From a virus (Duplodnaviria > Heunggongvirae > Uroviricota > Caudoviricetes), in IMG/VR virus record IMGVR_UViG_2913167280_000008, positions 1 through 7,056 of that record: DNA of 7,056 bases. One strand, given 5' to 3'. The notes under the pieces were generated by a model that saw nothing but the letters and a program-made list of their open reading frames with translations, made no database searches and had not been told where the DNA came from. Of this stretch, positions 1-7,056 are shown one piece after another. Position numbers and translations under genes: made by a program. Positions within the stretch are counted from its first letter, which is position 1; every line of letters begins with the position of its first letter.

Positions 1-1005
1 TTAATCCCCCGTGGACACAGCGTGGACACTTACGCCACCTTTCAGTGGATTAAGAGCCACCGCATCCTGCAGGTAATCCGGTGCAAAATGTGCATATGCC
101 ATTGTTTGCTGAATGGTTGCGTGACCAAGAATCTTCTGAAGCGCAATAATGTTTCCCCCATTCATCACAAAATGGCTGGCGAACGTATGCCGTAGCACAT
201 GTGCAGCCTGGCCTTTTGGCAAATCGGGTTTAACTCTTTTCAGCATCAGGCAGAATTCCCGGTACTTCACCTCAAACAAGTTGCCCGTTTCTTTGGTTTT
301 GATCGCCTCACAAACCGCCTGCGAAATTGGCACCGTCCTCTTCCGGCCATTTTTGGTTTCGAGAAACGTCACACGGTTATGAACTACCTGTTCTCCGCGA
401 AGCTTACTGGCTTCACCCCAACGCGCCCCGGTACTTAAACACAAAAGCGCAACACGCCAGTAGTCGCCCTCCAGTGTATCGAGCAATAGCGCTACTTCCT
501 TCTGGGACAGGAAAGCCATTTCTCGCGGGGATACATAAAGAATGGAGATCCCCCTTACCGGATGTTCTGCATCCCAAAGGCCTATTCTTTTCAGAACGGT
601 AAACATGCCGGATAGTCGGTTCATGTACCTGTTAGCAGATGACGGTTTCAATCCAGCAGCTATCTTTTGAGAACGCCACGCGATAATTTTCAGCTTATCA
701 AGATCCACAGCCTGCATATCAGCGCCAAGCTCATTGATTATGTTGCGCAGTTGTTTCCGGTCTTCTTCCGCCTTACGTCTGTGTTGGCCGTGATACATCC
801 ACCACAACTCAAGCAAATCATTCAGTGTCCGGCGATCACGGTAACCCTGTATATATTCCCGCTTTTCAGCGTTCGCCATGATGTAGCGTTCAGTGGCCAC
901 CGCTACTGATTTTTTGTCAAATACCTTACGCACGCGCTTTCCCTTGCGTCCGTTCGGCCTGATGTCCAGCAAATAACGACCATCTTCGAGCTTCTTAATT
1001 GACAT
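1..1005 (-). CDS. int: Tyrosine site-specific integrase, P2 Int-like (about 334 aa from the ATG at 1005..1003; the ORF track extends to a TTG at 1020)
   Basis: Minus-strand ORF ending in TAA at 3..1. N-terminus MSIKKLEDGRYLLDIRPNGRKGKRVRKVFDKKS closely resembles my recollection of the P2 Int N-terminus. C-terminal catalytic signature is present: TGARWGE (Arg), HVLRHTFASH (H-x-x-R box) and LGHATIQQTMAYAHF (catalytic Tyr region). GGAGG sits about 7 nt upstream of the ATG at 1005..1003. Confidence 0.9.
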   Translation of the reverse strand: MSIKKLEDGRYLLDIRPNGRKGKRVRKVFDKKSVAVATERYIMANAEKREYIQGYRDRRTLNDLLELWWMYHGQHRRKAEEDRKQLRNIINELGADMQAVDLDKLKIIAWRSQKIAAGLKPSSANRYMNRLSGMFTVLKRIGLWDAEHPVRGISILYVSPREMAFLSQKEVALLLDTLEGDYWRVALLCLSTGARWGEASKLRGEQVVHNRVTFLETKNGRKRTVPISQAVCEAIKTKETGNLFEVKYREFCLMLKRVKPDLPKGQAAHVLRHTFASHFVMNGGNIIALQKILGHATIQQTMAYAHFAPDYLQDAVALNPLKGGVSVHAVSTGD

Positions 1006-1101
1006 TGCGAAGCCCTCCAATGAACCGCTCTACAATTTCTCCAGCCTCTTTCCAGCAATAATCAGACCAGACAAAGAGCAGGTCTAACCAGTTTTCTGGC
1101 C

Positions 1102-1422
1102 TTAGCGGGGTGATTTTTGGTTTGTTTCGGTTGAAACCTGATCGCCCTCCGAATCGAAGAATCCATCAAGAGAGAGAGCCGGAGAAATTTGCCCAACCTC
1201 CGGCATCGTTTCATCTGTTGATAACCAATAAGCATACTTCTTAAATTTTGGGTGTTTCGTAACCTTAAGTAAGGCACCCTCTGTTACTTGCTTCCCCCTC
1301 ACCTCATAGTTAGTTACCGTCCCATAAGGTAGCCCAACACAATCCGCAAACTCCTGGCGGGTCATACCTTCTGCTTCACGAATCAGGCGAAATTTTTCAC
1401 CCATGCTTGACAAAGATGCCAT
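1102..1422 (-). CDS. C: Immunity repressor, P2 C-like HTH protein (about 106 aa; alternative in-frame starts at 1431, 1440 or 1500)
   Basis: Minus-strand ORF upstream of and co-oriented with int, as in P2. Contains an HTH segment (MTRQEFADCVGLPYGTVTNYEVRG) and a C-terminal GQISPALSLDGF stretch that matches my recollection of P2 C. GGAGGA lies about 10 nt upstream of the ATG at 1422..1420. Start choice is uncertain. Confidence 0.75.
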   Translation of the reverse strand: MASLSSMGEKFRLIREAEGMTRQEFADCVGLPYGTVTNYEVRGKQVTEGALLKVTKHPKFKKYAYWLSTDETMPEVGQISPALSLDGFFDSEGDQVSTETNQKSPR

Positions 1423-1536
1423 ATCGGGCATATCCTCCATCGCAAACATGCCACATCGGGCACACACATAAAAAAGCTCAAATAAGCCTATATAAGCCAT
1501 TTTGAGCCATTCGAACGAATTAGAGAGATTACCACA
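1423..1536. promoter_or_regulatory. Divergent early/repressor promoter and operator region between C (leftward) and cox (rightward), by analogy to P2 Pc/Pe
   Basis: A 114-bp AT-rich non-coding gap between two divergently transcribed regulators; contains the phased direct repeats listed separately and TATA-rich -10-like elements (ctatataag around 1488..1496). Exact hexamers and transcription starts cannot be assigned with confidence by eye. Confidence 0.55.
1483..1510. repeat. Three direct repeats TAAGCC(t)/TAAGCCAT/TGAGCCAT starting at 1483, 1493 and 1503 (10-bp phasing); candidate repressor or Cox operator sites
   Basis: Read directly: aaTAAGCCtaTATAAGCCATtTTGAGCCATtcg. One helical turn spacing places all three sites on the same DNA face. 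Confidence 0.5.
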
Positions 1537-1824
1537 ATGAGCGAATCAGAGCTTGAGGGGTTCATTCAGGTAGCACCATACCCACTTGAAGCGGTGCCAT
1601 ATCAACTATTCGCCAAGATGATTGGCCGCAAAGAATCAACCGTCAGAACCATGATTGACGCCGCAAAGCTACCAACAATTGATTTTGTAAAACCGGGTTC
1701 AGCAAAGACGCGAGCATCAGAAAACTGGGTATATCTGCCAGCATTTAACGCAGGTATGCGCAAAGCGTTTTTTGATCAGCCGAAAGAACGCCGCGATGCA
1801 TGGTTGTTGTGGCTGGGGCTTTAA
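1537..1824 (+). CDS. cox: Cox-like excisionase / early transcriptional regulator (95 aa)
   Basis: First rightward gene, divergent from C. The segments NWVYLPAFNAG and RDAWLLWLGL match my recollection of conserved P2 Cox segments (YWVYLPAWNNG, RDGWLMWLGL). AGAGAGA lies about 8 nt upstream of the ATG. Confidence 0.85.
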   Translation: MSESELEGFIQVAPYPLEAVPYQLFAKMIGRKESTVRTMIDAAKLPTIDFVKPGSAKTRASENWVYLPAFNAGMRKAFFDQPKERRDAWLLWLGL

Positions 1825-1830
1825 TCATAA

Positions 1831-2037
1831 ATGACCAGCAATATCACCAGCGCCATTTTGGCCATTATGTTTATTGAGATAGGCGTAATAGCGATTTATC
1901 TATTTCGCAAGTTAACGGGGCATGAAGAACGCTTTGTTGATCTCAACATCGAGTACATCGCCGCTTATACCAAAGGGCTTTTTCCGGCTGCCATTGGCGC
2001 GGTGCTCATAGCGTTTATTGTTCATTTTATCGGGTAA
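1831..2037 (+). CDS. Small membrane protein, two predicted TM helices (68 aa), function unknown
   Basis: ORF begins 6 nt after the cox stop. Two hydrophobic stretches (SAILAIMFIEIGVIAIYLF and LFPAAIGAVLIAFIVHFI) are separated by a charged loop. The RBS is weak, so expression may depend on coupling to cox. Confidence 0.6.
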   Translation: MTSNITSAILAIMFIEIGVIAIYLFRKLTGHEERFVDLNIEYIAAYTKGLFPAAIGAVLIAFIVHFIG

Positions 2038-2078
2038 AAAACTCAGTAATTCATAATGTTGTAGTAAGGAGATCGGTT

Positions 2079-2186
2079 ATGTGCGGACTGGATAAGATGG
2101 ACCTTTTCTTAATCATAATACTGTCAGTTAACTTCGGGGTGTTATTGGCTTCTATGATTTTCATGCGGGGATATAAACAAAAATGA
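2079..2186 (+). CDS. Tiny single-pass membrane peptide (35 aa, MCGLDKMDLFLIIILSVNFGVLLASMIFMRGYKQK); not in the supplied ORF track
   Basis: Hand-translated. A strong AAGGAG RBS lies 8 nt upstream of the ATG at 2079. A 20-residue hydrophobic core is followed by a basic tail. Its TGA (2184..2186) overlaps the ATG of the next gene (2183..2185) as ATGA. Confidence 0.4.
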   Translation: MCGLDKMDLFLIIILSVNFGVLLASMIFMRGYKQK

Positions 2187-2536
2187 ATAAGCAACAGTGC
2201 AATTCTTCACAGCAACGCTTCCGCAACGGGGCGGAACGCCATGCTAACCGTTTCGCTACCAGTGCATCACGTAGCAACACTCGCTACAGCCTGAGCGAAA
2301 CACACGCTACACCTGATGGCCATCCCGTAAAACAAATTGGTGAACACACCTGGCTGATTGAGAAAGCTGGAATCGTGGTTCACAGATGCCAACGCAACCC
2401 ATTTACCGGAAACCGCATTTTTGCTCTGAGCAACGGCGACAATCAGTTTGGACAGGATTTCACGTTGTACGAAGCTCTGCGCACGGTTGATCGTCTGCTG
2501 CGTGGACAGAATTTCATTAAACAGGCTGATTTATAA
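2183..2536 (+). CDS. Hypothetical early protein (117 aa)
   Basis: Long ORF in the same orientation as the early operon, start overlapping the upstream peptide stop (ATGA). No motif I can assign; polar N-terminus, conserved-looking core IVVHRCQRNPFTGNRIFALSNGDNQFG. Confidence 0.6.
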   Translation: MNKQQCNSSQQRFRNGAERHANRFATSASRSNTRYSLSETHATPDGHPVKQIGEHTWLIEKAGIVVHRCQRNPFTGNRIFALSNGDNQFGQDFTLYEALRTVDRLLRGQNFIKQADL

Positions 2537-2546
2537 CAGGTGCTTT

Positions 2547-2825
2547 ATGACCAAAGACCATGCTCAGGGTGTATTTATCCGCTTTATTGATTTTCGCGGT
2601 GAGCTGTTGTTGCGCGCATCAGCTATTGATGGAGTGGTTCCGGTAGATAAAAGCACGGCCACTTACATTTATCTGAACGGCACACGCCTGACCGTAGAGA
2701 TTCCATATCAACACGTATGCGAAATTATTAGCGAAGCTGAAAAAGCACGTCAGGTTAATGGCAATAACCCCTATCTCGAAATTATCTGCATGGATTCAGA
2801 AGCTGAAATTCAGAAGGCAGATTAA
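2547..2825 (+). CDS. Hypothetical early protein (92 aa from ATG 2547; the ORF-track start at 2448 lies inside the previous gene)
   Basis: ATG at 2547 is 11 nt after the TAA of the previous gene; the track's 2448 start would overlap the upstream gene by 89 nt. No recognisable motif. Confidence 0.55.
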   Translation: MTKDHAQGVFIRFIDFRGELLLRASAIDGVVPVDKSTATYIYLNGTRLTVEIPYQHVCEIISEAEKARQVNGNNPYLEIICMDSEAEIQKAD

Positions 2826-2836
2826 AGGGCGTTGCG

Positions 2837-3079
2837 ATGGATAAAGAATATAAAACTCTCGTCAATAAAGCACTTGAGCGCTTTCATTTTCGCTTAAGCG
2901 CATCGGGCACTCATGCTGAGCTCGCAGCCCGAGAATCATTGACCAGGGCCATCAAGAGTATATACGACACAGCTTTTTACATTGACGACCCGGACGCGCT
3001 CGACGAGCTTTCCGTACTCGTCTGCGCCGCAGAAAACGGGGACCATATTGAGCCATATAAACTGGGAAATATTGCATGA
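2837..3079 (+). CDS. Hypothetical early protein (80 aa), acidic
   Basis: ORF begins 12 nt after the previous stop in the same orientation. Its stop TGA (3077..3079) overlaps the ATG at 3076 of the next small ORF. Confidence 0.55.
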   Translation: MDKEYKTLVNKALERFHFRLSASGTHAELAARESLTRAIKSIYDTAFYIDDPDALDELSVLVCAAENGDHIEPYKLGNIA

Positions 3080-3189
3080 GTATATTTATCTCATGGCTTG
3101 TTCTGATTATTTCGGTGGCCTGCGCTATTGGGATTATGCGAATTATTAATTCAGTAAAAAAGATTGAACGCTTTTTCACTGAAGAATAA
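3076..3189 (+). CDS. Tiny single-pass membrane peptide (37 aa, MSIFISWLVLIISVACAIGIMRIINSVKKIERFFTEE); not in the supplied ORF track
   Basis: Hand-translated. The ATG overlaps the upstream stop as ATGA (3076..3079). A 19-residue hydrophobic core is followed by a KK-containing tail; stop is TAA at 3187..3189. Confidence 0.4.
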   Translation: MSIFISWLVLIISVACAIGIMRIINSVKKIERFFTEE

Positions 3190-3275
3190 CCGCGCAAATA
3201 AGACTCCAGGTTAAATAAGAAAATGTGAAAACAATCCGCATTCGCGGAGGTATTCGCACACGCCAAGGAGGCGTA

Positions 3276-3479
3276 ATGGCAATTAAGCATTTTCCTGTCG
3301 TTCGTTTCACCTCCAGAGGACGTGAATACGAAGTTGACGAACGCCTGATTACCACAATCGACAAACACCGTTCAGAAAAGGATGCACATCACATCTATCT
3401 CACTGACGGTACTTACTTCTGCGCCACCAACGTGGTGCAGGTGAATCTTATCAGACAGGTACAGGAGTCACGCAGATGA
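3276..3479 (+). CDS. Hypothetical early protein (67 aa from ATG 3276; the track gives a GTG at 3225)
   Basis: A strong AAGGAGG RBS (3265..3271) lies 4-5 nt upstream of the ATG at 3276, so I prefer this start over the GTG at 3225. Stop TGA at 3477..3479 overlaps the next start. Confidence 0.55.
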   Translation: MAIKHFPVVRFTSRGREYEVDERLITTIDKHRSEKDAHHIYLTDGTYFCATNVVQVNLIRQVQESRR

Positions 3480-3721
3480 CCATTCTGGACTACATCGCTG
3501 CCAATCCGGGTTGTAGCGGTGGAGAAATCGCCGCAGCACTGAATACACCAACCACAACCATTAATGCGGAGCTACGCCGTCTCTGGCGCAGCGGTTCAGT
3601 CATAAGAAAAGAGCGCAAAACAGGCGGTCGCTTTTCTTATCAGGTAAACCCGATGCCGTTTGGGTGTAGCAACCCACTAACCCAGATGTTCAACCAGCTA
3701 CTGAGGGAAATCAGAGCATGA
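3476..3721 (+). CDS. Putative winged-helix DNA-binding protein (81 aa)
   Basis: ATGA overlap with the upstream gene, and GGAG 8 nt upstream. The sequence ILDYIAANPGCSGGEIAAALNTPTTTINAELRRLWRSGSVIRKERKTGGRFSYQV has the helix-turn-helix-plus-wing layout typical of wHTH regulators; this is a pattern call, not a database hit. Confidence 0.6.
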   Translation: MTILDYIAANPGCSGGEIAAALNTPTTTINAELRRLWRSGSVIRKERKTGGRFSYQVNPMPFGCSNPLTQMFNQLLREIRA

Positions 3722-3729
3722 GCACCTCC

Positions 3730-3774
3730 TGCTGCCGGAAACCACGTCGGGCTTCAGCAGCTCATCCGGCAGCA
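3730..3774. repeat. Perfect 10-bp inverted repeat TGCTGCCGGA (3730..3739) / TCCGGCAGCA (3765..3774) with a 25-nt spacer
   Basis: Read directly from the sequence. It sits in the 141-bp gap between the wHTH gene and the 121-aa gene. No T-tract follows on either strand, so it is not a canonical intrinsic terminator. Confidence 0.5.
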
Positions 3775-3862
3775 AAACAAACTCCGTTAATTCCTGTTCC
3801 GGGCCTTTCCTGCACCTTGCGGCGGGAGGCCTTCGCACATCTGCAACAAGAGGATTGCCGCA

Positions 3863-4228
3863 ATGATTCTCGCCGAAGACTTTTTTGATTACCTGCTGAA
3901 AACCGAGCGCGATTTTGGTATTCGCGTTCTCGACCGCTATGCAATGTATCTGAAATCACTGCCGGAACAGCAGCTCCCGGACGGCCAGATTGTTATTGAC
4001 GGGCGCTACATGGTTGGTAGCTGCCAGGATGATTACACACTTTCCCGCATCGAAAGCGGCACGCCTTCCGTACTGGGTATTTACCAGCGAACTTCATTTC
4101 TGATTGCTGATGTAATTGCTGACAGCATTCGCATAACACACCGTTATGCCAGCACAGAGAGCACCATGCAGGAAATCCAGCGGCTGGCTACCGTCTGCCA
4201 CAATGCACTGAGCGGCAAGGCGGAGTAG
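3863..4228 (+). CDS. Hypothetical early protein (121 aa) immediately upstream of the replication initiator
   Basis: ATG at 3863 is preceded by AAGAGGA about 8 nt upstream. Stop TAG at 4226..4228 is 5 nt before the GTG start of the gpA-like gene. No recognisable motif. Confidence 0.6.
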   Translation: MILAEDFFDYLLKTERDFGIRVLDRYAMYLKSLPEQQLPDGQIVIDGRYMVGSCQDDYTLSRIESGTPSVLGIYQRTSFLIADVIADSIRITHRYASTESTMQEIQRLATVCHNALSGKAE

Positions 4229-4233
4229 TCAGC

Positions 4234-7056
4234 GTGGCAACGGAGTACATCAGAAACTGGCAACAACCACGCCATGCAGTCGGTCGCGAGGGAACGGGGG
4301 AGCCTGTCCGCCCCTCCCTTCTTTCTTCCTGGCTGGATGCCTACCGGGCAGAGAACGAGCGCCGCCAGGAAATGGCTGATGCGGCGTTCTCCGCCACGCC
4401 GCTGGGCAATTTGATTAATAAAAACCTGGACGCACAGGAAAAACAGGACAAAGCCATCACACTGGCAAGAGAAGCCAGAAAACAGGCGTGTGGCGCGGTG
4501 GATGAAGCAATTGCCGCACTGCGCCTGCTGCCGTCCTATCTGCGAGATCCGCTTATCCGCCATCTCTCTTTCCTGCGCAAAAAACAGGAATCCGATCGTC
4601 AGAAAGGCAAAAAGAGCTGGCAGGCTGAACGCTACGCGCGCGGAACCCTGCGCAAAATATTCGAACGTCTGGAGCGCACCGACCGTCGCTGGCTGACACC
4701 GGGTTATCGCTCCCTTGCCGGGCGTGAACGCCTGGATGATTTACTTTACCTGCCGCAGCTCAACAAACACCAGATACAGACGCTGGCCGTCATGACAGCG
4801 GCGATGTTCAGCAGCACCTTCGAAAAACTCTGCGATGACTTTGGCGCGACCGATGGCGAGCTGACCATGGATATAACGCTGAAGGCGTATCAGCTGCTGG
4901 CCCGCATGGCGTTACATCTGCACACAGTGCCGCCGCATTATGACGCACTGACAACAGACAAAGACCGTAAGAGCGAACCGGACACGGAACTGCTGCCGGG
5001 CGCAATCCTCCGCCTGACCTGCGCGGACTGGTGGAAACGCAAACTGTGGCTTTTACGTTGCGAGTGGAGAGAGGAGCAACTCCGCGCTGCCTGTCTGGTT
5101 TCCAGAAAAACATCCCCCTATCTGAGCCAGGACGCATTAAGTGAATTTCGCGCACAGCGCGAGAAAACACGCGATTTCCTGAAAAGTTTCATGCTGGAAA
5201 ATGAAGACGGGTTCACGATTGATCTCGAGACGGTGTATTACGCGGGAGTAAGTAACCCGGTCCACCGTAAGGCAGAAATGATGGCCACCATGAAGGGGCT
5301 GGAACTTCTGGCCGAAGCCCGTGGCGACAGGGCGGTATTTCTGACCGTTACCTGTCCGTCAAAATATCACGCAACAACGGAGAACGGTCATCCGAATCCA
5401 AAATGGAACGGCGCCACCATGCGCGATTCCAGTGATTACCTGGTTAACACTTTTTTTAAGGCGGTCCGCAAAAAACTGAATCGCGACGGCCTGCGCTGGT
5501 ATGGCATCCGCACGGTGGAGCCACACCATGACGGCACCGTACACTGGCACATGATGGTCTTTGCACATTCTGAAGAAATCGACAGCATCGTGGACATCAC
5601 CCGTGATATTGCCATTCGCGAAGACCGCCACGAGCTGGGCAATGACATAACTCCGCGCTTTAAGGCAGAGTACGTTGACGGTTCGAAAGGTACGCCGACC
5701 AGCTACATCGCCACCTACATCGGAAAGAACCTGGACAGCCGCGCCGTGGATGGCATTGACCCGAAAACAGGCAAGCCACGCGTTGATCACGAAACCGGAA
5801 AATCAATGGCCGAGAGCGTGGAACGCGCCATCGGCTGGGCGCGCCTTCACCGCGTCCGCCAGTTCCAGTTCTTTGGTATCCCCTCCCGTCAGGTATGGCG
5901 TGAACTCCGCCGCCTTGCCAGTCAGATGGCCCGCAACCCGGAAGGTCCACAACGTCTGGAAAATGACGCAATGGATGCGGTACTCGCTGCCGCTGATGCC
6001 GGGTGTTTTGCCACCTACATTGAGAAACAGGGTGGCGTACTTGTTCCACGCAAGGATTACCTGATTCGCACCGCCTACGACCTCGCAGAAGAGCTGAACG
6101 ATTACGGCGAGCAAAGCGTACAGATTTACGGGATCTGGTCGCCACAAATCGGGGAATCTTCCCGCGTGTGCACGCACCCGGATAACTGGAAGCTGGTAAG
6201 ACGTAAACCGGAAGCGGAAGACAGCGCCAACGAAAATGGTTTTGACCTTCAGGGCGGCCCTGCCGCCCCTTGGACTCGTGGCAATAACTGTCCCCGTGTA
6301 CAGGAAACGGACAACAACGGGACAGAACAGCCGGAAGAACGGCCAGCACCGTGGCCGCAGCTTCCTGACGGCGTTGAAGTGAATGAATGGATGCGCTCAC
6401 TGAAACGGCACGAACGCCGGGCGCTGATGCGTTCGCTGCGTGACAAACAGGCAAAAAACAGCAGTGATGAAATGCAGAACTGGACACAGAGCCGCAAACA
6501 GCCGCGGCCTTTGCCTGATAACCACGAGTTACTCGCTAAAGAATGGCGGGAGTCTGCCGAATCTCTCGGCCTGCATATCGGTAAACAACAGATGCTGCAC
6601 CTGTTACGGGGCGGCAGTCTGTACGTTGACGGCAGCATCATTGCGCCGCAGGGATATGAAATTGTACGTAAACCGGATACCCGACCGGACAGCCGAATCA
6701 CGCAGCTCTGGCAGCGCCTGAGCCGTAATCACAGCGTAAGCAGCACGGAGATCCGCCATAACCCGGTTTCCAGCTATCTGAAACAGCTCGGTGCATCAGA
6801 CCCAGAAGCCGCCGCACGCCTGGCATCCACACTTCAGCAGGACCAGAACACCATGAAAACCCCCGTTACCGTGCTTTCTGACATGCTGCGCGCCATCCGT
6901 GACGCAGAGCACGCACAGAGAATCAGTGAAACCACTGAACGCGCCCACCGCAAAGCAGACCTGCTGCGGGGTGGCCTGACCCGTGGGAACAAAAAACAGA
7001 CAGAAACGGGATTCACAAATCCCGTAAATGAGCAAAAAACGCGCCGCGAAATATGA
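4234..7056 (+). CDS. A: Rolling-circle replication initiation endonuclease, P2 gpA family (HUH superfamily), 940 aa, complete with stop at 7054..7056
   Basis: GTG start with GGAG 8 nt upstream. HUH metal-binding motif in VEPHHDGTVHWHMMVF (H-W-H at nt 5542..5550, residues about 437-439). Tyrosine pair Y-x-x-x-Y in SYIATYIGKN (Tyr codons 5704..5706 and 5716..5718). Both motifs match my recollection of the P2 gpA active-site region. Position at the end of the early operon matches P2 gene order. Confidence 0.85.
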   Translation: MATEYIRNWQQPRHAVGREGTGEPVRPSLLSSWLDAYRAENERRQEMADAAFSATPLGNLINKNLDAQEKQDKAITLAREARKQACGAVDEAIAALRLLPSYLRDPLIRHLSFLRKKQESDRQKGKKSWQAERYARGTLRKIFERLERTDRRWLTPGYRSLAGRERLDDLLYLPQLNKHQIQTLAVMTAAMFSSTFEKLCDDFGATDGELTMDITLKAYQLLARMALHLHTVPPHYDALTTDKDRKSEPDTELLPGAILRLTCADWWKRKLWLLRCEWREEQLRAACLVSRKTSPYLSQDALSEFRAQREKTRDFLKSFMLENEDGFTIDLETVYYAGVSNPVHRKAEMMATMKGLELLAEARGDRAVFLTVTCPSKYHATTENGHPNPKWNGATMRDSSDYLVNTFFKAVRKKLNRDGLRWYGIRTVEPHHDGTVHWHMMVFAHSEEIDSIVDITRDIAIREDRHELGNDITPRFKAEYVDGSKGTPTSYIATYIGKNLDSRAVDGIDPKTGKPRVDHETGKSMAESVERAIGWARLHRVRQFQFFGIPSRQVWRELRRLASQMARNPEGPQRLENDAMDAVLAAADAGCFATYIEKQGGVLVPRKDYLIRTAYDLAEELNDYGEQSVQIYGIWSPQIGESSRVCTHPDNWKLVRRKPEAEDSANENGFDLQGGPAAPWTRGNNCPRVQETDNNGTEQPEERPAPWPQLPDGVEVNEWMRSLKRHERRALMRSLRDKQAKNSSDEMQNWTQSRKQPRPLPDNHELLAKEWRESAESLGLHIGKQQMLHLLRGGSLYVDGSIIAPQGYEIVRKPDTRPDSRITQLWQRLSRNHSVSSTEIRHNPVSSYLKQLGASDPEAAARLASTLQQDQNTMKTPVTVLSDMLRAIRDAEHAQRISETTERAHRKADLLRGGLTRGNKKQTETGFTNPVNEQKTRREI

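Follow-up and report, generated by a model that had tools for sequence, protein, structure and literature searches.

A probable early-lytic operon segment of nine small genes between cox and A in a P88-like prophage of Escherichia coli

The window, the whole 7,056-nucleotide stretch of viral DNA that was analyzed, carries nine small open reading frames (ORFs), all on the plus strand, between cox (1537-1824) and a gpA homolog (4234-7056). We designated the ORFs by the lengths of their products (68, 35, 117, 92, 80, 37, 67, 81, and 121 amino acids [aa]). All nine were confirmed where the first-pass annotation had placed them. The features of the region are as follows.

1407..1436, plus strand: putative Pe-like early promoter (TTGACA-18-TATCCT), 10 of 12 matches in a consensus scan
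1537..1824, plus strand: cox (95 aa), first gene of the early operon; phmmer match to P2 Cox, E 2e-30
1831..2037, plus strand: o68 (68 aa); phrog_14475 (E 1.5e-33), a family of unknown function
2079..2186, plus strand: o35 (35 aa), single-pass membrane peptide by hydropathy; AAGGAG 8 nt upstream
2183..2536, plus strand: o117 (117 aa), basic (pI 10); start overlapped by the o35 stop
2547..2825, plus strand: o92 (92 aa), acidic; phrog_3800; starts at an internal ATG of a longer TTG ORF
2837..3079, plus strand: o80 (80 aa), acidic (pI 5.0); phrog_2549; pN/pS 0.20
3076..3189, plus strand: o37 (37 aa), single-pass membrane peptide by hydropathy; start overlaps the o80 stop (ATGA)
3190..3275: slot 2, an intergenic gap, empty in the window; defined by breakpoints and the distance distribution among relatives
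3276..3479, plus strand: o67 (67 aa); phrog_3459 (PHROG E 1.3e-45); starts at an internal ATG; stop overlaps the o81 start
3476..3721, plus strand: o81 (81 aa), stand-alone winged-helix protein, predicted to bind DNA; annotated "MarR family"; phrog_1687; pN/pS 0.17
3722..3862: slot 3, a deletion scar, empty in the window; crossed by a non-gene 56-aa ORF (3718-3888)
3863..4228, plus strand: o121 (121 aa); phrog_3237 (PHROG E 1.9e-35); 5 nt upstream of the A start; pN/pS 0.35
4234..7056, plus strand: A, encoding the gpA replication endonuclease (940 aa); PF05840; phmmer matches to 186 A (6e-93) and P2 A (4e-85)

The block between cox and A has a five-part layout: the o68/o35 pair; a core of five genes, o117 to o67; o81; the scar of a lost cassette; and o121, which ends 5 nt before A. 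There are ATGA overlaps at three junctions (o35/o117, o80/o37, and o67/o81), and the remaining gaps are 5 to 11 nt, except for three of 41 nt (o68 to o35), 86 nt (slot 2), and 141 nt (the scar). A starts with GTG, and the GGAG 9 nt upstream lies within the 3' end of o121. The Pe-like site is upstream of cox, in the position that corresponds to P2 Pe, in a region where the scan found three consensus sites, fewer than the 4.8 expected by chance. On the plus strand no promoter-like or terminator-like sites were found within the block, and no terminator-like sites were found from 1000 to 4400. A repeat search of 1000 to 4400 gave nothing beyond short two-copy chance matches. The block had been described as richer in AT than int and A. 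This description held only in part: the GC content was 47.6% for the block, compared with 49.5% for int and 56.5% for A, and within the block it was 44.8% in the left part (1831-3275) and 51.9% in the right part. The lowest GC contents are those of the genes for the membrane peptides o35 (37.0%) and o37 (33.3%). The combination of an own promoter, a terminator, and a marked shift in composition that is found in moron or hotspot cargo was not seen in the block.

Eight of the nine ORFs are real genes; the evidence for o35 is thinner. Independent gene callers called the same nine products on public assemblies. Among about 50 related loci, the unique variants of o68, o92, o80, o37, o67, o81, and o121 contained no internal stops, their variable sites were mostly at codon position 3, and their pN/pS values were 0.15 to 0.42. 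A tenth ORF (3718-3888, 56 aa) was rejected as a gene; its pN/pS was 1.14 and one variant had an internal stop.

The window was 99.94% identical to E. coli assembly GCA_004745395.1, and the element adjoins pdxB. Xuanwuvirus P88_4B11, Citrobacter phage Shae_phiSM, PhiR44_2, and an ST131 prophage had 90 to 92% nucleotide identity to the window over at least 89% of its length, with the same gene order. These alignments place the window among the P88-like prophages of E. coli (Xuanwuvirus, Peduoviridae; P2 family). P88_4B11 (NC_049391), at 90.7% identity across 99% of the window, is collinear with it (int-C-cox-small genes-A), and this order is the same in the P88-type references and in the ST131 prophage; for P88_4B11, Shae_phiSM (OR565851), and the pdxB-adjacent prophage of E. 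coli ST131 together, identity was 90.7 to 91.6% over 93 to 99% of the window length. Escherichia phage P88 (NC_026014) was 89.7% identical to the window, starting only at the DUF4761 gene. The families common to the window and the P88-type references are DUF4761, phrog_3800, DUF4754, the 37-aa peptide, phrog_3459, the winged helix-turn-helix (wHTH) protein, and phrog_3237. The window is the minimal version: its cox-to-A distance is 2413 nt, whereas P88_4B11 has 3297 nt and Shae_phiSM has 4179 nt. Missing from the window are the slot-2 gene that Shae_phiSM carries and the cassette of ead/Ea22, isrK/C4 RNA, and derepression genes that P88_4B11 carries. Its o121 allele is only 66 to 69% identical to those of the P88-type references.

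The block matched 1387 of 5426 complete E. coli genomes (about a quarter), including the ST131 and O157 lineages, and its genes are also present in Salmonella, Citrobacter, and Cronobacter. Every one of the 59 to 61 related loci spanning the core (o117-o92-o80-o37-o67) contained it with constant spacing, and the cox position ahead of it was occupied by at least four different switch genes. A comparison of relatives, which had been recommended as a measure of how variable the interval is, found the core constant; only o68/o35 and two insertion slots varied, and neither slot is filled in the window. Thus, the proposal that the block is variable accessory cargo was contradicted by a core fixed in 59 to 61 loci and by the frequency of the block in E. 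coli. As a segment of early genes in a P88-like prophage, the block is ordinary and widely conserved, and its nine real small genes are not variable cargo.

The block genes had also been regarded as undescribed. However, two of the proteins are in Pfam (DUF4761, 228 bits; DUF4754, 181 bits) and seven match PHROG families, six of these being families of unknown function, and RefSeq annotates every block gene except o35 in the 91.6%-identical ST131 prophage. The related statement that the proteins could not be assigned to known families was right insofar as no function is known, but families and RefSeq annotation exist. The same is true of the profile and structure searches that had been suggested, which returned Pfam and PHROG families but no confident functional match in two structure models.

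Within the core, o117 is a DUF4761 protein (PF15958, 228.4 bits against a GA of 27, profile positions 1-105 of 105). Its N-terminal ca. 35 residues are conserved in sequence and predicted to be disordered, and its core (approximately residues 40-110) is predicted to form five beta-strands followed by a C-terminal helix. o92 is predicted to form a small beta-sheet with one long helix, for which a LytTR or PH-like beta fold is a tentative candidate on structural superposition; it has 16 invariant residues among its first 27, and the rest are mostly near-invariant. o80 is a DUF4754 protein (PF15946, E 3.3e-54, 181.5 bits against a GA of 27, profile positions 1-80 of 80), with relatives in only three species-level GTDB genomes in a scan with the DUF4754 profile. 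o67 (pN/pS 0.15) belongs to a narrow orphan family; a full HMMER search gave only 15 hits in 1.84 billion representatives, and in the phage collection it was found only in Xuanwuvirus records. Among the 15, the sole long hit was to a repeat protein of 1016 aa, and it was dismissed as a chance similarity in a short motif. Both o67 (positions 84-135) and o81 (positions 162-243) matched the 246-position profile phrog_19053. Sequence and profile searches of o117, o92, o80, o67, and o121 against all PDB chains gave no hit or noise only.

o81 reached the Pfam thresholds for MarR_2 (28.7 bits; GA 27) and HTH_24 (27.6 bits; GA 21.9), and it has the wHTH core. MarR family regulators are about 140 to 160 aa long, with N- and C-terminal dimerization helices. 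o81 matches only their winged-helix core (profile positions 9-60), and an 81-aa protein has no room for the dimer-interface helices. Because of this length, and because o81 scored only 14.9 bits against the full Pfam MarR model, below the GA of 24.6, it does not have the full MarR architecture. FeoC/YhgG proteins are stand-alone wHTH proteins that resemble o81 in size, and the nearest solved chains were YhgG/FeoC (78 to 87 aa; E 0.012). The NCBIfam search of all the proteins gave no hits beyond generic wHTH matches for o81. o81 was absent from about 20% of the related loci.

The o68 and o35 proteins are small membrane proteins that travel with the P2-type Cox module. PF10743 (Phage_Cox) was matched by products identical to the window Cox, and pN/pS for cox was 0.07. 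Hydropathy of o68 gave two hydrophobic segments (residues 2-20 and 43-61); its pN/pS was 0.42, with 0 stops in 8 variants. o68 accompanies P2-type cox in most loci, is missing in two (L014 and L027), and occurs in another (L049) without a cox hit. Only 6 loci contained o35, whose two alleles were 63% identical.

The early operon of P2 (cox, orf78, B, orf80-83, A) has the same architecture as the window: cox, a run of small genes, and a DUF5405-type gene abutting A. As the first-pass annotation had noted, the small genes are not the set that P2 carries, and they are not that of 186 either. In phmmer, tblastn, and 144 hhalign profile comparisons of the window ORFs with P2 and 186 early proteins, only the pairing of o121 with DUF5405 stood out; hhalign probabilities were 2.6% or lower for all the others. 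Eight of the nine block proteins have no detectable homology to P2 or 186 early proteins, and P2 orf78, B, orf80 (DUF2732), orf81, and orf82 (a DksA-like zinc finger) have no homolog in the window. None of the ORFs has the size of P2 B, as had also been noted, and none resembles it in sequence. The terminator-like site after P2 B also has no equivalent. Phage 186 (apl, cII, fil, dhr, orf80-84, A) likewise has small early genes before A, with a DUF5405 gene as orf83, but its cII, fil, dhr, and orf80-82/84 have no homolog in the window, and its switch gene is Apl rather than the P2-type Cox.

Residues 42-118 of o121 are probably a distant homolog of DUF5405 (P2 Orf83/186 Orf83). The Pfam match (PF17399) was at E 0.005 and 17.6 bits, below the GA of 21.6, and 3 of 9 members of the o121 family hit DUF5405, at E values of up to 1. 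In hhalign the probability was 68 to 70% (E 4e-5) with 28% identity over 76 columns. The position of o121 directly upstream of A is that of orf83 in P2 and 186. A longer DUF5405 alignment built from IMG/VR (80 loci) was 99 to 100% identical to P2, and no diversity was gained. Loci without o121 carry a 129-aa allele, 18% identical, in the same slot.

Twenty-five of 60 relatives carry an extra 100 to 850 nt in slot 2, at about 3262-3265. The cargo ORFs in that slot (105 to 138 aa) gave no family hits above threshold, and the slot cargo of relatives gave no defense match in PADLOC. At the scar, homology to relatives stops at 3726 and restarts at 3748/3752, and the relatives carry an insert of 0.8 to 1.9 kb. 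The scar retains about 13 codons from the 3' end of a Derepression-family gene and the final 30 codons of an "Ash" frame, whose C terminus (3774-3863) is 93% identical across 30 aa. RefSeq marks a pseudogene at this position in locus L001. Judged from these flanks, the scar is the loss of the cassette found in relatives, which consists of ead/Ea22, isrK RNA, C4 antisense RNA, and a derepression protein. An Rfam search of the window gave no hit, and a structured RNA at 3719-3865 was rejected (fold z-score, -1.54).

We consider it likely that the interval is the early-lytic operon segment, from cox to the replication initiator A, of a P88-like E. coli prophage in its shortest natural form. A mechanism can be proposed from gene size, order, overlaps, and analogy. 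The block genes would be silent in the lysogen, with Pe repressed by C, and after derepression they would be cotranscribed and largely cotranslated with cox and A. Their products would most likely act by binding because they are too small for enzymes and have no recognized catalytic domain. Together o81 and o67 may be a DNA-binding regulator; the inner membrane would be the site of action of the three membrane peptides; and o117, o92, and o80 may bind host or phage macromolecules during early lytic growth. o121 would bring ribosomes to the A start; according to the GenBank record of 186, A appears not to be translated unless translation proceeds to the end of orf84. The same record marks the early genes orf80-84 as "not essential," and by this analogy the block genes are probably accessory rather than essential. 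That the core is so strictly conserved nonetheless points to a real contribution to fitness; it would also fit an essential role, which is not what the 186 analogy predicts.

A more ambitious reading, which we regard as unlikely, is that the core is a genus-specific host-takeover, counterdefense, or replication-assisting module of folds without a characterized relative, with at least one member that has a new molecular activity. The core occurs only in Enterobacterales, and about a quarter of E. coli genomes carry it. A candidate for such an activity would be inhibition of a host replication, recombination, or defense protein.

It is rather improbable that the block is counterdefense or superinfection exclusion cargo, in which at least one small early protein inhibits a host defense or excludes other phages. 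Small genes of an early operon, with no assigned function and no fold match, would suit such a role, and the o68/o35 membrane proteins are polymorphic for presence among relatives with the same cox type. Furthermore, GC content in the left half of the block is lower than in int by 5 points, and o80 and o92 are acidic (pI of about 5), a form that is common in protein-mimic inhibitors. However, the core is invariant in about 60 loci behind at least four switch modules, which is the opposite of typical cargo turnover, and the slots that truly vary are empty in the window. Anti-defense functions had been among those suggested earlier. No defense family was matched in PADLOC, the best similarities of the block proteins being generic wHTH ones at E values of about 1e-3 or weaker; this is weak evidence against counterdefense because PADLOC is a library of defense rather than counterdefense systems. 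For superinfection exclusion, genes repressed in the lysogen would need another promoter, and none was found.

We give equally little credence to the possibility that part of the core is a replication accessory module that replaces P2 B or helps the unusually long gpA at the origin. P2 B is a DnaB helicase loader needed for lagging-strand synthesis, and no homolog of it is present anywhere in the window. Conservation of the core, which shares an operon with A, is universal. The replication module differs in that gpA, at 940 aa, is longer than its counterparts in P2 (761 aa) and 186 (694 aa). o117 is a basic protein whose N-terminal tail is conserved and flexible, as in many nucleic acid binders. 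Yet the 186 early operon also lacks a B homolog, and thus a phage-encoded loader is not obligatory in the P2 family; no similarity to a helicase loader, single-stranded DNA-binding protein, or primase was found in sequence or fold; and all of the block proteins are far below the 166 aa of B.

That several of the small ORFs, especially those of 35 and 37 aa, arose by chance is highly improbable. In favor of chance, both are very short, without a hit in Pfam, PHROG, NCBIfam, or PADLOC families, and o35 is not annotated by RefSeq in L001. Against it, o37 is intact in 18 of 18 unique variants (81 to 100% identical to the window peptide, no stops, pN/pS 0.35), is conserved in every locus covering its position, and has a fixed ATGA coupling to o80 with constant spacing in 60 loci. 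o35 keeps its length and hydrophobic profile between its two alleles and has a strong AAGGAG site, and gene calls for it exist in L139, L140, and L143. Noncoding behavior was seen only in the 56-aa ORF at 3718-3888.

The preferred reading remains that of an early-lytic operon segment. The first-pass annotation is partly supported, in that its observation was right but its interpretation as variable, undescribed cargo was wrong. Nor were all of the ORFs P2 or 186 homologs in an interval free of variation, the outcome that had been set against the cargo interpretation, and the truth lies between the two readings because neither was fully borne out. A search of one literature library returned no paper mentioning DUF4761, DUF4754, or DUF5405, and papers on P88 and Citrobacter prophages contained nothing on the function of the block genes. 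Public databases already contain these genes, in this order and with these families, and as a discovery the window adds nothing. The interval ranks low as a home of new accessory cargo. Its invariant core is well defined and would be a reasonable choice for routine functional studies of P2-family phages, bearing on what a Xuanwuvirus does within minutes of induction and on how it replicates when it has no homolog of P2 B. Another variable position of the P88-like group is the region downstream of A, outside the window.

The small genes between cox and the gpA homologue (1831-4228) repeat a gene set already known and catalogued, that of the P88-like early region, and are not the undescribed block proposed in the first-pass annotation; a specialist in P2-family phages would find nothing surprising in them. 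By megablast, the window belongs to the P88-like phages of the P2 family (genus Xuanwuvirus, Peduoviridae): its identity is 90.7% to P88_4B11 over 99% of the window length, 90.9% to Citrobacter phage Shae_phiSM over 93%, and 91.6% to the pdxB-adjacent prophage of E. coli ST131 over 99%. Several E. coli assemblies identified through exact protein matches show this arrangement, adjacent to pdxB every time, and one of them, GCA_004745395.1, shares 99.94% identity with the window over its full length.

Features of the window (oNN, ORF of NN aa; PHROG-u, PHROG family of unknown function; pN/pS from ungapped homologues out of ~50 related loci)
1-1020, minus: tyrosine integrase
1102-1500, minus: HTH repressor
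1537-1824, plus: cox; pN/pS 0.07
1831-2037, plus: o68, PHROG-u, two hydrophobic segments; pN/pS 0.42
2079-2186, plus: o35, one hydrophobic segment
2183-2536, plus: o117, PHROG-u, Pfam DUF4761 (228 bits)
2547-2825, plus: o92, PHROG-u; pN/pS 0.25
2837-3079, plus: o80, PHROG-u, Pfam DUF4754 (181 bits); pN/pS 0.20
3076-3189, plus: o37, one hydrophobic segment; pN/pS 0.35
3276-3479, plus: o67, PHROG-u; pN/pS 0.15
3476-3721, plus: o81, winged helix (MarR_2 28.7 bits, HTH_24 27.6 bits); pN/pS 0.17
3718-3888: o56; pN/pS 1.14
3863-4228, plus: o121, PHROG-u; pN/pS 0.35
4234-7056, plus: gpA-type replication endonuclease, 940 aa

The true start of the repressor ORF is uncertain; it encodes 132 aa from the first ATG, and the same gene is 99-132 aa long in public records.

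The block had also been taken for variable, probably accessory cargo, a view that its conservation contradicts. Of 5426 complete E. coli genomes, 1387 contained a match to it, and in 870 of these the match covered at least 80% of its length. The core o117-o92-o80-o37-o67 was present wherever a contig covered it (48 loci from IMG/VR plus a further dozen), and its spacing was constant in 59-61 loci. The remaining value of the region lies in this strictly conserved five-gene core, which is of unknown function and occurs in a quarter of E. coli genomes. Ahead of the same core, the place of cox is taken by at least four unrelated genes, encoding a P2-type Cox of 95 aa or proteins of 67, 92, and 108 aa (related loci L006-L056 and L137); therefore, immunity/switch modules are exchanged and the early core is retained. 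Only four places vary: the cox-o117 interval, in which o68 and o35 go with the P2-type Cox and are missing in L014 and L027; slot 2 between o37 and o67 (~3262-3265), with a minimal gap in 35 loci and 100-850 nt extra in 25; slot 3 between o81 and o121 (3726-3748), minimal in 19 loci with 0.5-1.9 kb extra in the rest; and the gene immediately upstream of A, which differs in allele. The cox-to-A distance of the window falls in the shortest class (2413 nt versus up to 4637 nt). Among relatives, the slots hold cargo such as an SPFH/Band 7 lipoprotein, ead/Ea22-like proteins, a Derepression-family protein, and several proteins with no family assignment; a PADLOC search of this cargo gave no match.

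The window was searched with all early proteins of the annotated P2 and 186 regions, using phmmer, tblastn, and 144 profile comparisons. The window resembles P2 in Cox (2e-30) and both phages in A (4e-85 and 6e-93 to the P2 and 186 proteins). The sole small protein of the nine with a signal to the P2/186 early proteins was o121, a probable distant relative of DUF5405 (the family to which P2 Orf83 and 186 Orf83 belong); it matched below the gathering score in Pfam (E 0.005, 17.6 bits versus 21.6) and with an hhalign probability of 68-70% (E 4e-5, residues 42-118). Its end lies 5 nt upstream of the A start codon, where P2 has orf83. Loci without a tblastn match to o121 carry a 129-aa allele that is 18% identical; because this allele aligns end to end with o121, the slot before A is always held by the phrog_3237 family. 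The same three methods found no P2 B homologue anywhere in the window, and it appears unlikely that a block protein stands in for B as a replication helper. As had been anticipated, the block genes are uncharacterised and unlike those of P2; the block represents neither variable cargo nor a gene set of the P2/186 type. The gpA protein is 940 aa long here, compared with 761 aa for P2 A and 694 aa for 186 A; alignments to these two stop near 6450-6465, leaving the C-terminal ~197 residues (6466-7053) without a counterpart in either.

The block families are narrow. DUF4761 comprises 154 clusters and the o92 family 103, with named members from Escherichia, Shigella, Salmonella, Citrobacter, Cronobacter, and Hafnia, the exception being one assembly labelled Vagococcus. 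There were 19 clusters for o121, 15 matches for o67 among 1.84 billion representative proteins, and only three species-level genomes with DUF4754. In the exception (L054, NZ_JBQPOM010000071.1, Vagococcus sp. WN89Y), a 226-kb contig under a Gram-positive label carries this enterobacterial prophage block with 66-97% protein identity across it, probably reflecting contamination or a mislabelled assembly. No mention of DUF4761, DUF4754, or DUF5405 was found in the literature searched, and the papers on P88 and on Citrobacter prophage are silent about the block genes. The single profile phrog_19053 matches both o67 and o81, consistent with a putative fused form elsewhere. The solved chains nearest to o81 are YhgG/FeoC (78-87 aa); at 81 aa, o81 is too short to be a true MarR. 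Residues 1-27 of o92 (2547-2627) include 16 invariant positions, with most others nearly so, and the remainder varies; residues 1-35 of o117 (2183-2290) form a predicted-disordered N terminus with invariant E18, R19, S27, and Y35. Both N termini look like conserved interaction segments. NCBIfam and PADLOC searches of the block proteins returned generic wHTH similarity only, and a role for any of them in counter-defence or exclusion is improbable.

All nine ORFs listed in the first-pass annotation were found with exactly the sizes reported, and gene callers predicted the same products on public assemblies. With one ungapped homologue each, o35 and o117 were left out of the pN/pS comparison. No variant of cox, o68, o92, o80, o37, o67, o81, or o121 contained an internal stop. 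Present in six loci only, o35 has two alleles, 63% identical, that agree in length and hydrophobic pattern, and it is preceded by AAGGAG at a distance of 8 nt. One variant of o56 is interrupted, so o56 is not a gene and the count of about ten falls to nine; a chance-ORF reading is excluded for every other ORF, on thinner evidence for o35. The AT-richness judged by eye holds in part: the block has 47.6% GC versus 49.5% for int and 56.5% for A, and its left part (1831-3275, 44.8%) owes its low value to two membrane peptides, o35 (37.0%) and o37 (33.3%).

All block genes lie on one strand, with one Pe-like promoter predicted upstream of cox and no terminator-like site on the plus strand within 1000-4400. 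ATGA overlaps join o35/o117, o80/o37, and o67/o81, and other gaps are 5-11 nt except at o68/o35 (41 nt), in slot 2, and at the scar that separates o81 from o121. Upon derepression, the block would be cotranscribed with cox and A, with translation largely coupled. Its products may act through binding rather than catalysis: o81 with o67 would be a DNA-binding regulator, three peptides would act at the inner membrane, and o121 might bring ribosomes to the A start, as is noted for orf84 and A in the 186 record. By analogy with 186 orf80-84, described there as 'not essential', the block genes are probably accessory. Confidence is high in the structural description of the block and low in the functional part of this explanation.

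The scar (3722-3862) marks a lost cassette. Homology to P88_4B11 halts at 3726 and restarts at 3748, skipping 801 nt of P88_4B11 that hold an ead/Ea22-like gene, an isrK-type RNA (Rfam 64 bits, GA 50), a C4 antisense RNA (83 bits, GA 45), and most of a 76-aa Derepression-family gene (PF25738). From the derepression gene the window retains only the final ~13 codons, and from an overlapping 'Ash' frame the final 30; an Rfam search of the window gave no match, and the remaining 147 nt of the scar fold no better than shuffles (z-score -1.54). RefSeq lists an 'ash family, incomplete' pseudogene here in the ST131 prophage because only the 3' ends of the cassette remain. Relatives carry, within a P2-like early operon, a P4/P1-type antisense-RNA and antirepressor cassette that the window has lost. 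P88 was obtained via mitomycin C induction (PMC5285337), and the cassette may bear on how a phage of this group, with a P2-type C repressor, would respond to DNA damage.

In P88_4B11 (L002, 4631-5248, matching the deletion point at 3726-3748 of the window), a 205-aa ORF annotated among relatives as 'ash family protein', 'Phage_ASH', or 'transcriptional regulator' holds both RNAs and, in another frame, the 76-aa derepression gene. The Ash annotation is probably not a real product in the overlap, because pN/pS is 1.73 for Ash versus 0.31 for derepression.

Directly downstream of A in relatives L139-L143, outside the window, lie either a ParM-like actin with a Plasmid_stab_B protein or a Dam-type methyltransferase with an AAA_15/AAA_21 ATPase; this region appears to be where the group has its genuine variable hotspot.
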